Source: Escherichia coli
Lineage (GTDB): Bacteria > Pseudomonadota > Gammaproteobacteria > Enterobacterales > Enterobacteriaceae
Reading direction: 5' to 3' (one strand)
DNA: 64,000 bases
Assembly (NCBI RefSeq): GCF_003790525.1
Contig: NZ_CP033635.1
Below the pieces are notes generated by a model. The model had not been told where the DNA came from and did no database searches. It saw only the letters and a list, made by a program, of their open reading frames with translations. Of this stretch, positions 4,554 through 5,135 are shown one piece after another. A program made the position numbers and the translations under genes. Numbering within the stretch: the first letter of the stretch is position 1; each line of letters opens with the position of its first letter.

Positions 4554-4823
4554 GCGCCATGAGTGACAATATCGCCAGCGGGCAGCTGGTATCAGGGAAA
4601 GCCGCACATCTGGCCTGGTGCGGGCTGGTAGCCCTGCATCTGGCCCGCCGGGATGGCCGGATTGCGTCAAAAATCCAGGAAAACCTGTTTCTAAACCGCT
4701 GGCGGAGCACAGCACTGAAACAGCACCGTTTTCCCCGCACATATCAGAGCCCTGCAGAGTGAAAGCGGGGCGAAAGATATCCGCAGCAGGCTGGAGTATC
4801 TGTGGCAGGCCTGCTCTGGTGAT

Positions 4824-5135
4824 GTGTCGGTACAGACTGACCTGTTCCGCCTGACATTCGCCCTGGAAACCATCAGGGAGCAGGGCTGGTGCTGGCGGAT
4901 ACTGAGCGACCGGAAATGGGAGGGGCGTAATGTCGTGGTTCCGAACGGGGATGCCGGCAGCTTTTATCTTTCCCGCTCACGTCTTGAGGCGGCATTTGAT
5001 TATCAGGGGAGGTTGCTGCATCCCCTGACCGGCGATGTGTCTGCCCTCGCTGCCCTGCTCCGGAATGCGGGTTGGTATCCAATTCCAGCCGGAACCACGG
5101 ATATGGCGATGTTTGAGCTGTCTGTCATCCGCTGA
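4824..5135 (+). pseudogene. hypothetical ORF without ATG start; possibly 3' part of a frameshifted gene beginning near 4559
   Basis: Frame is open from 4719 with no ATG; an ORF in another frame (4559-4762) overlaps it; no family recognised. Confidence 0.3.

Follow-up and report, generated by a model that had tools for sequence, protein, structure and literature searches.

Between a gene for a PTS EIIA protein and the fructokinase gene scrK, the window (the whole 64,000-nucleotide stretch of Escherichia coli DNA analyzed here) carries two open frames that overlap in different reading frames. This raises the question of whether positions 4559-5135 hold two small genes or a single broken one and, in the latter case, what kind of change broke it. 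The first-pass annotation proposed one gene of ~190 amino acids (aa), broken by a frameshift, and recognized no family. Our analysis indicates that 4559-5135 is, with high probability, a single gene of the DUF2913 family, ancestrally of ~200 aa, inactivated by one or more small deletions with a net loss of 23 nt. The coordinates of the locus and its neighbors are given in Table 1.

Table 1. Features of the DUF2913 locus and the surrounding sugar cluster (window positions).
Feature	Position	Strand	Basis or remark
Alpha-galactosidase, 3' part	22-1215	+	Pfam/NCBIfam, RefSeq of identical DNA
LacY-type permease	1255-2547	+	Pfam/NCBIfam, RefSeq of identical DNA
GH32 invertase	2544-3974	+	Pfam/NCBIfam, RefSeq of identical DNA
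crr-like PTS EIIA-Glc	4023..4553 (RefSeq start 4038)	+	NF006962 equivalog, 235.7 bits vs cut-off 212
N-terminal DUF2913 fragment	4559..4762	+	67-codon ORF, ATG start, homology, RefSeq WP_001313182.1
C-terminal DUF2913 part	4719..5135	+ (+1 frame)	homology; RefSeq WP_001313183.1
Annotated C-piece CDS	4824-5135	+	103 aa, GTG start
Lesion zone	4733..4802	+	70 nt between conserved F54 and W86 codons
PfkB-family fructokinase (scrK-like)	5165..6091	+	NF006957 equivalog, 477 vs cut-off 450; own GGAG ribosome-binding site 6 nt upstream of start
ScrY/LamB-family sugar porin, N-terminal coiled-coil extension	6191..7687	+	last gene of block
Truncated Mutator-family (IS1414/IS256-like) transposase	7924-8703	-
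IS3-family element	starts ~8714
Group II intron reverse transcriptase/maturase ORF	10333-11691		inserted in IS3-family element

Two reading frames and one protein family

The layout of the frames agreed with the first-pass annotation. The upstream ORF is present in the ORF list with its ATG and 67 aa, the ATG lying 5 nt downstream of the stop of the crr-like gene. Translation showed that the second frame is open directly after a TGA at 4716-4718 and ends at a TGA at 5133-5135, with no ATG, GTG, or TTG start before the GTG at 4824. The two frames overlap at 4719-4762, the downstream frame being shifted by +1 relative to the upstream one, and neither contains further stops or indels. Overlapping ORFs are in themselves commonplace in DNA of 57% G+C, and the ORF list of the window includes many spurious ones; the frames at this locus go beyond chance because of their homology.

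Against the Pfam profile DUF2913 (PF11140), the N-terminal piece corresponds to positions 9-53 and the C-terminal piece to positions 66-155. Scored separately, the pieces reached 21.1 and 12.2 bits, both under the gathering threshold of 23 bits, while the joined reading scored above it (26.0 bits, E 9e-06, profile 9-155 of 207). A custom HMM made from 32 intact homologues matched the first frame at 4592-4747 (profile 4-55, E 2e-25) and the +1 frame at 4776-5126 (profile 73-194, E 2e-37), so that the two profile ranges are colinear and do not overlap; there was no match in the other four frames. In tblastn searches with six intact DUF2913 proteins (201-205 aa), all six produced two colinear HSPs, one in each frame. 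The first HSP placed residues ~1-55 on 4559/4598-4738 in the first frame with 58-68% identity, and the second placed residues 73/78 to 180-197 on 4779-5087/5132 in the +1 frame with 42-51% identity. A single subject protein thus spans both frames, as opposed to hits to two separate proteins or none, and the proposal that the two ORFs are one frameshifted gene is supported by the Pfam assignment, the HMM, and the tblastn colinearity. Family homology runs from 4559/4592 to 4738/4747 in the first frame and from 4776/4779 to 5126/5132 in the +1 frame, and the last five to eight codons of the N-terminal fragment before its TGA are out-of-family sequence.

The joined reading had 378 homologues in a search of 5.8 billion proteins. 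The full-length ones measure 195-223 aa, are 42-49% identical, cover 85-99% of the joined reading, and are labeled DUF2913 wherever they are named. A further match, to phrog_15786, spans residues 13-177 in one stretch (E 2.6e-45). All 40 columns that are invariant in an alignment of 33 sequences are conserved in the window copy, upstream and downstream of the break alike. The homology to family members such as WP_004152389.1 (Klebsiella pKpQIL) and P0003, a 201-aa protein of Salmonella enterica, is colinear over nearly the whole profile, with 42-49% identity to the best intact members. Thus, a family is recognizable where none had been named, both as DUF2913/PF11140 and as phrog_15786, and the proposed ~190 aa was near the length of the one gene, the ancestral size being ~200 aa. 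Neither an intact homologue nor the joined reading matched the PADLOC-DB anti-phage defense HMMs or the NCBIfam named families.

The lesion and the competing readings

We located the break by the spacing of two conserved residues, F54 (TTT, 4730-4732) and W86 (TGG, 4803-4805). Among 68 diverse family members, aligned down to 25% identity, 66 have 31 residues between the two (range 30-32), as against 23 in the best joined reading of the window. In nucleotides, the window has 70 where 93 (31 codons) are expected; this net loss of 23 nt is 2 modulo 3, exactly what shifts everything downstream into frame +1. An alignment of the DNA with three intact genes, made with MAFFT, put a frame-shifting gap of 11 nt right after ...TTTCCCCGCA (4739) and a second, in-frame gap of 12 nt near 4784. 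In the 33-sequence alignment, the nearly invariant RDVAPDIEWLLKQGR segment is lost between invariant columns that are retained. The lost segment is the nearly invariant R-D-V-A-P-D-I-E-W-L-L-K-Q-G-R stretch, with columns 56-76 mostly gone, and four further residues are missing before the invariant T-G motif. The break is therefore not a clean one-base slip. The frame change that had been proposed is real; the net 23-nt deficit means that it need not have been a single-base frameshift. Because this deficit sits in a conserved helix, restoring the frame would still not yield a normal protein.

An AF2 model of an intact member (mean pLDDT 94.4) consists of a five-helix N-terminal bundle (helices 7-27, 34-50, 56-76, 78-89, and 98-111) followed by a small alpha/beta domain. 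On this model, the lesion removes most of helix 56-76, the third of the bundle, and thus falls inside the bundle, the domain boundary being near residue 112. In a model of the joined product, the third helix is cut to seven residues and the local pLDDT drops from ~98 to 72, which, as weak evidence, agrees with the other findings on the lesion. The uninterrupted ~200-aa ORF with a helix 3 of fixed length that marks the family is absent from the window copy. The split frames, together with a spacing of 23 instead of 31 residues, identify the copy as a pseudogene of the DUF2913 family and not a functional member. Candidate mutational paths are an 11-nt deletion, several steps adding up to the net 23-nt loss, or a join of what were once two tandem copies.

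RefSeq presents the locus differently. PGAP calls WP_001313182.1 (67 aa) and WP_001313183.1 (103 aa) as separate, non-pseudo CDS, both named "DUF2913 family protein"; these are the same two ORFs, at matching positions in E. coli strain 2452. The family name of both pieces is therefore already right, and what differs is the pseudogene status: two ordinary genes in RefSeq, two halves of one disrupted gene here. Read as RefSeq has it, the locus would encode two independent functional small proteins, of 67 aa (N-terminal) and 103 aa (C-terminal), acting separately or reassembling as a split DUF2913. Both frames are indeed intact, many short proteins matching DUF2913 turned up in a representative search, and by the AF2 model, the 103-aa ORF would hold helix 5 and the entire alpha/beta C-terminal domain. 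However, the break falls within the helical bundle instead of at the domain boundary, a conserved segment is missing from the DNA, and the tail of the N-terminal piece departs from the family until a chance TGA ends it. Nor does a Shine-Dalgarno sequence stand at a proper distance from the GTG at 4824: the sole purine-rich motif, GGTGA, abuts the start codon, and no convincing ribosome-binding site is apparent. The short database matches, in turn, are largely fragments from contig ends or errors. We therefore regard two functional genes as improbable.

A second alternative is that ribosomes join the frames by programmed +1 frameshifting in the overlap, with T TTT CCC CGC (4729-4738) as one candidate site, to make a 191-aa DUF2913 protein. 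Within 4719-4762, a +1 shift on either TTT_C or CCC_C would bring the frames together, and the removal of one C gives an uninterrupted ORF, as happened by accident in an error-rich assembly (P0002). However, we found no upstream Shine-Dalgarno-like motif, the candidate site contains neither a rare codon nor a stop, the downstream RNA fold is ordinary (z = -1.2), and there was no Rfam match above the gathering score. No homologue examined is split at this point, so recoding is not conserved, and the product would still be eight residues short in a helix of invariant length. The slippery site with a stimulator and the conserved shift that characterize prfB-type recoding were not seen, the sequence elements having been looked for in 4700-4770; a scan for RNA and recoding elements revealed no promoter-like site and no significant repeats. 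Programmed frameshifting is thus very unlikely.

The least credible alternative, an error of sequencing or assembly in a gene that is really intact, could point to the homopolymer runs T4 and C4 in the overlap and to the two database proteins, P0002 and P0042, that read through it, but it is effectively refuted by the population data, as the identical sequence occurs in 222 or more complete E. coli genomes from many laboratories and on nine plasmids, with 0 gaps against finished records, and a single-base correction would leave eight codons missing. P0002 and P0042 were also considered as intact alleles and rejected; their contigs have 93 and 34 gap openings per 5.4 kb, respectively, and all neighboring genes in them are shattered, so that the read-through is an assembly artefact.

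Distribution and genomic setting

Of 5,426 complete E. coli genomes, 246 carry the 1.2-kb stretch around the locus at 99% identity or more, mostly on the chromosome, and nine E. coli and Salmonella plasmids have it too. The lesion is common to all full-length copies listed, drawn from over 220 complete E. coli genomes and the nine plasmids. In E. coli strain 2452, the chromosomal stretch is 100% identical and the identical split is annotated. The copy on an IncFII plasmid of Salmonella Saintpaul has the same lesion, with 98.8-99.1% identity and no indels over 7.7 kb. Over the two pieces, the E. coli and Salmonella copies differ by eight substitutions, four non-synonymous and four synonymous, which are too few to show relaxed selection. 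The search of 5.8 billion proteins yielded no intact close orthologue, the best intact protein being 49% identical and only fragments falling between 49% and 97% identity. Likewise, the only matches of distant-mode blastn and of tblastn against plasmids were the same split copy and relatives with at most 60% protein identity.

In some E. coli genomes, matches to the locus end exactly at window position 4749, within the lesion zone; we rejected a connection with the lesion, as this is an unrelated IS3-adjacent deletion. Among E. coli genomes, 5 of the 60 sampled rows show it, as a deletion from 4750 to ~8718, compared with locus L009 (E. coli YJ4). The deletion ends at the left end of the IS3-family element (TGAACCGCCCCGGGAATCC...), removes the C-terminal piece, the fructokinase, and the porin, and looks like an IS-adjacent deletion.

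The neighbors named by the first-pass annotation, an EIIA gene upstream and scrK downstream, were correct, with NF006962 and NF006957 both above their cut-offs. On the same strand, the order is GH32 invertase, crr-like EIIA, the DUF2913 remnant, fructokinase, and ScrY-like porin. This block belongs to a mobile raffinose/sucrose cluster (rafR-rafA-rafB-rafD plus the block) that is present in ~4% of complete E. coli genomes and on some plasmids of E. coli and Salmonella. The raf operon of the raffinose plasmid pRSD2 comprises rafR-rafA-rafB-rafD and rafY, and the enterobacterial scr regulon comprises scrK-scrY-scrA-scrB-scrR. The window resembles both systems in having genes for an alpha-galactosidase, a LacY-type permease, and a GH32 invertase, after which come a fructokinase and a ScrY/LamB-type porin. 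To our knowledge, no description of classical raf or scr places DUF2913 or a copy of crr between the genes for the invertase and the kinase/porin.

Several other elements surround the block. A perfect 9-bp G+C-rich hairpin (ACTGCCGTCGGTGACGGCAGT) at 3984-4004 lies 10 nt downstream of the invertase stop and before the crr-like gene; from its sequence, it could be a terminator or attenuator marking where the appended crr/DUF2913/scrK/scrY block joins the classical raf genes. Downstream of the porin, 7924-11691 holds mobile-element debris. A type I restriction-modification operon at 12462-20443 encodes hsdM (819 aa), hsdS, and hsdR (1005 aa), with an extra DUF4268-containing gene (387 aa, 16248-17411) between hsdS and hsdR. 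An AIDA/Ag43-type autotransporter (973 aa, 24168-27089) is followed by the core genes rpoD and dnaG (minus strand, 33626-37407) and glnE (48681-51614). The proximity of these core genes puts the raf island of this strain on the chromosome, close to rpoD; in strain 2452, the same cluster lies in a different island, adjoining tRNA-Ser/ghrA.

The DUF2913 family and the fate of the remnant

By tblastn, intact DUF2913 relatives occur on 3,249 of 72,556 plasmids, mostly from Klebsiella and Salmonella, and 2,275 of these plasmids are predicted to be conjugative. Intact DUF2913 genes are thus typical cargo of mobile elements. They adjoin TraI relaxase, Hha, and DsbA genes on Erwinia plasmids, and other sites include a T6SS-adjacent island in Salmonella and pSLT. 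On pKpQIL (L008, 5430-6588) and a Providencia plasmid (L014, 2381-3558), directly downstream of an IncFII-type repA, the DUF2913 gene overlaps the stop of a ProQ/FinO-family gene by 4-17 nt. DUF2913 and the gene for this RNA chaperone may form a two-gene module; as a general trait of the family, the linkage was rejected, being present in 2 of the ~7 contexts sampled and absent from the five others. The literature search returned mentions of DUF2913 that were table entries without functional data.

The window copy differs from these intact relatives in both structure and place. Its reading frame is broken and shifted, 23 nt net and most of helix 3 are gone, and the copy lies in a sugar-catabolism operon, whereas intact DUF2913 genes lie in plasmid backbones or genomic islands. 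The overwhelming majority of intact relatives reside on plasmids or islands, and for this reason the gene most likely joined the sugar block as a plasmid passenger when the block was assembled. Through one or more deletions in the segment for the third helix, everything downstream, two thirds of the gene, is read in the +1 frame. Translation of the 67-aa N-terminal fragment probably persists through coupling to crr, in a product that would lack most of the fold, and the C-terminal piece has no convincing ribosome-binding site of its own. From these features of the sequence, we infer that the remnant is non-functional.

There is only a slim chance that the locus is more than this, either because the split gene is still alive, with its fragments or a low-level +1 product having a role in the sugar block, or because DUF2913 proteins in general work with the ProQ/FinO-family RNA chaperone whose gene is translationally coupled to theirs on IncFII(K)-type plasmids, which would make the copy a fossil of a plasmid RNA-control module captured along with the raf/scr genes. 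The locus is thus read as an ordinary decayed passenger gene, a pseudogene in a sugar cluster. For annotation, this amounts to a minor fix, by which two DUF2913 CDS in hundreds of RefSeq E. coli genomes would become one pseudogene. For the operon, polarity on the genes for the fructokinase and the porin is conceivable, as ~400 nt are left untranslated once the premature stop is reached. More broadly, the DUF2913 family is widespread on plasmids, and its fold, although predicted with confidence, has no counterpart among solved structures. For the mobile raffinose cluster, the remnant marks the crr/scrK/scrY block as having once stood in a plasmid-backbone context.
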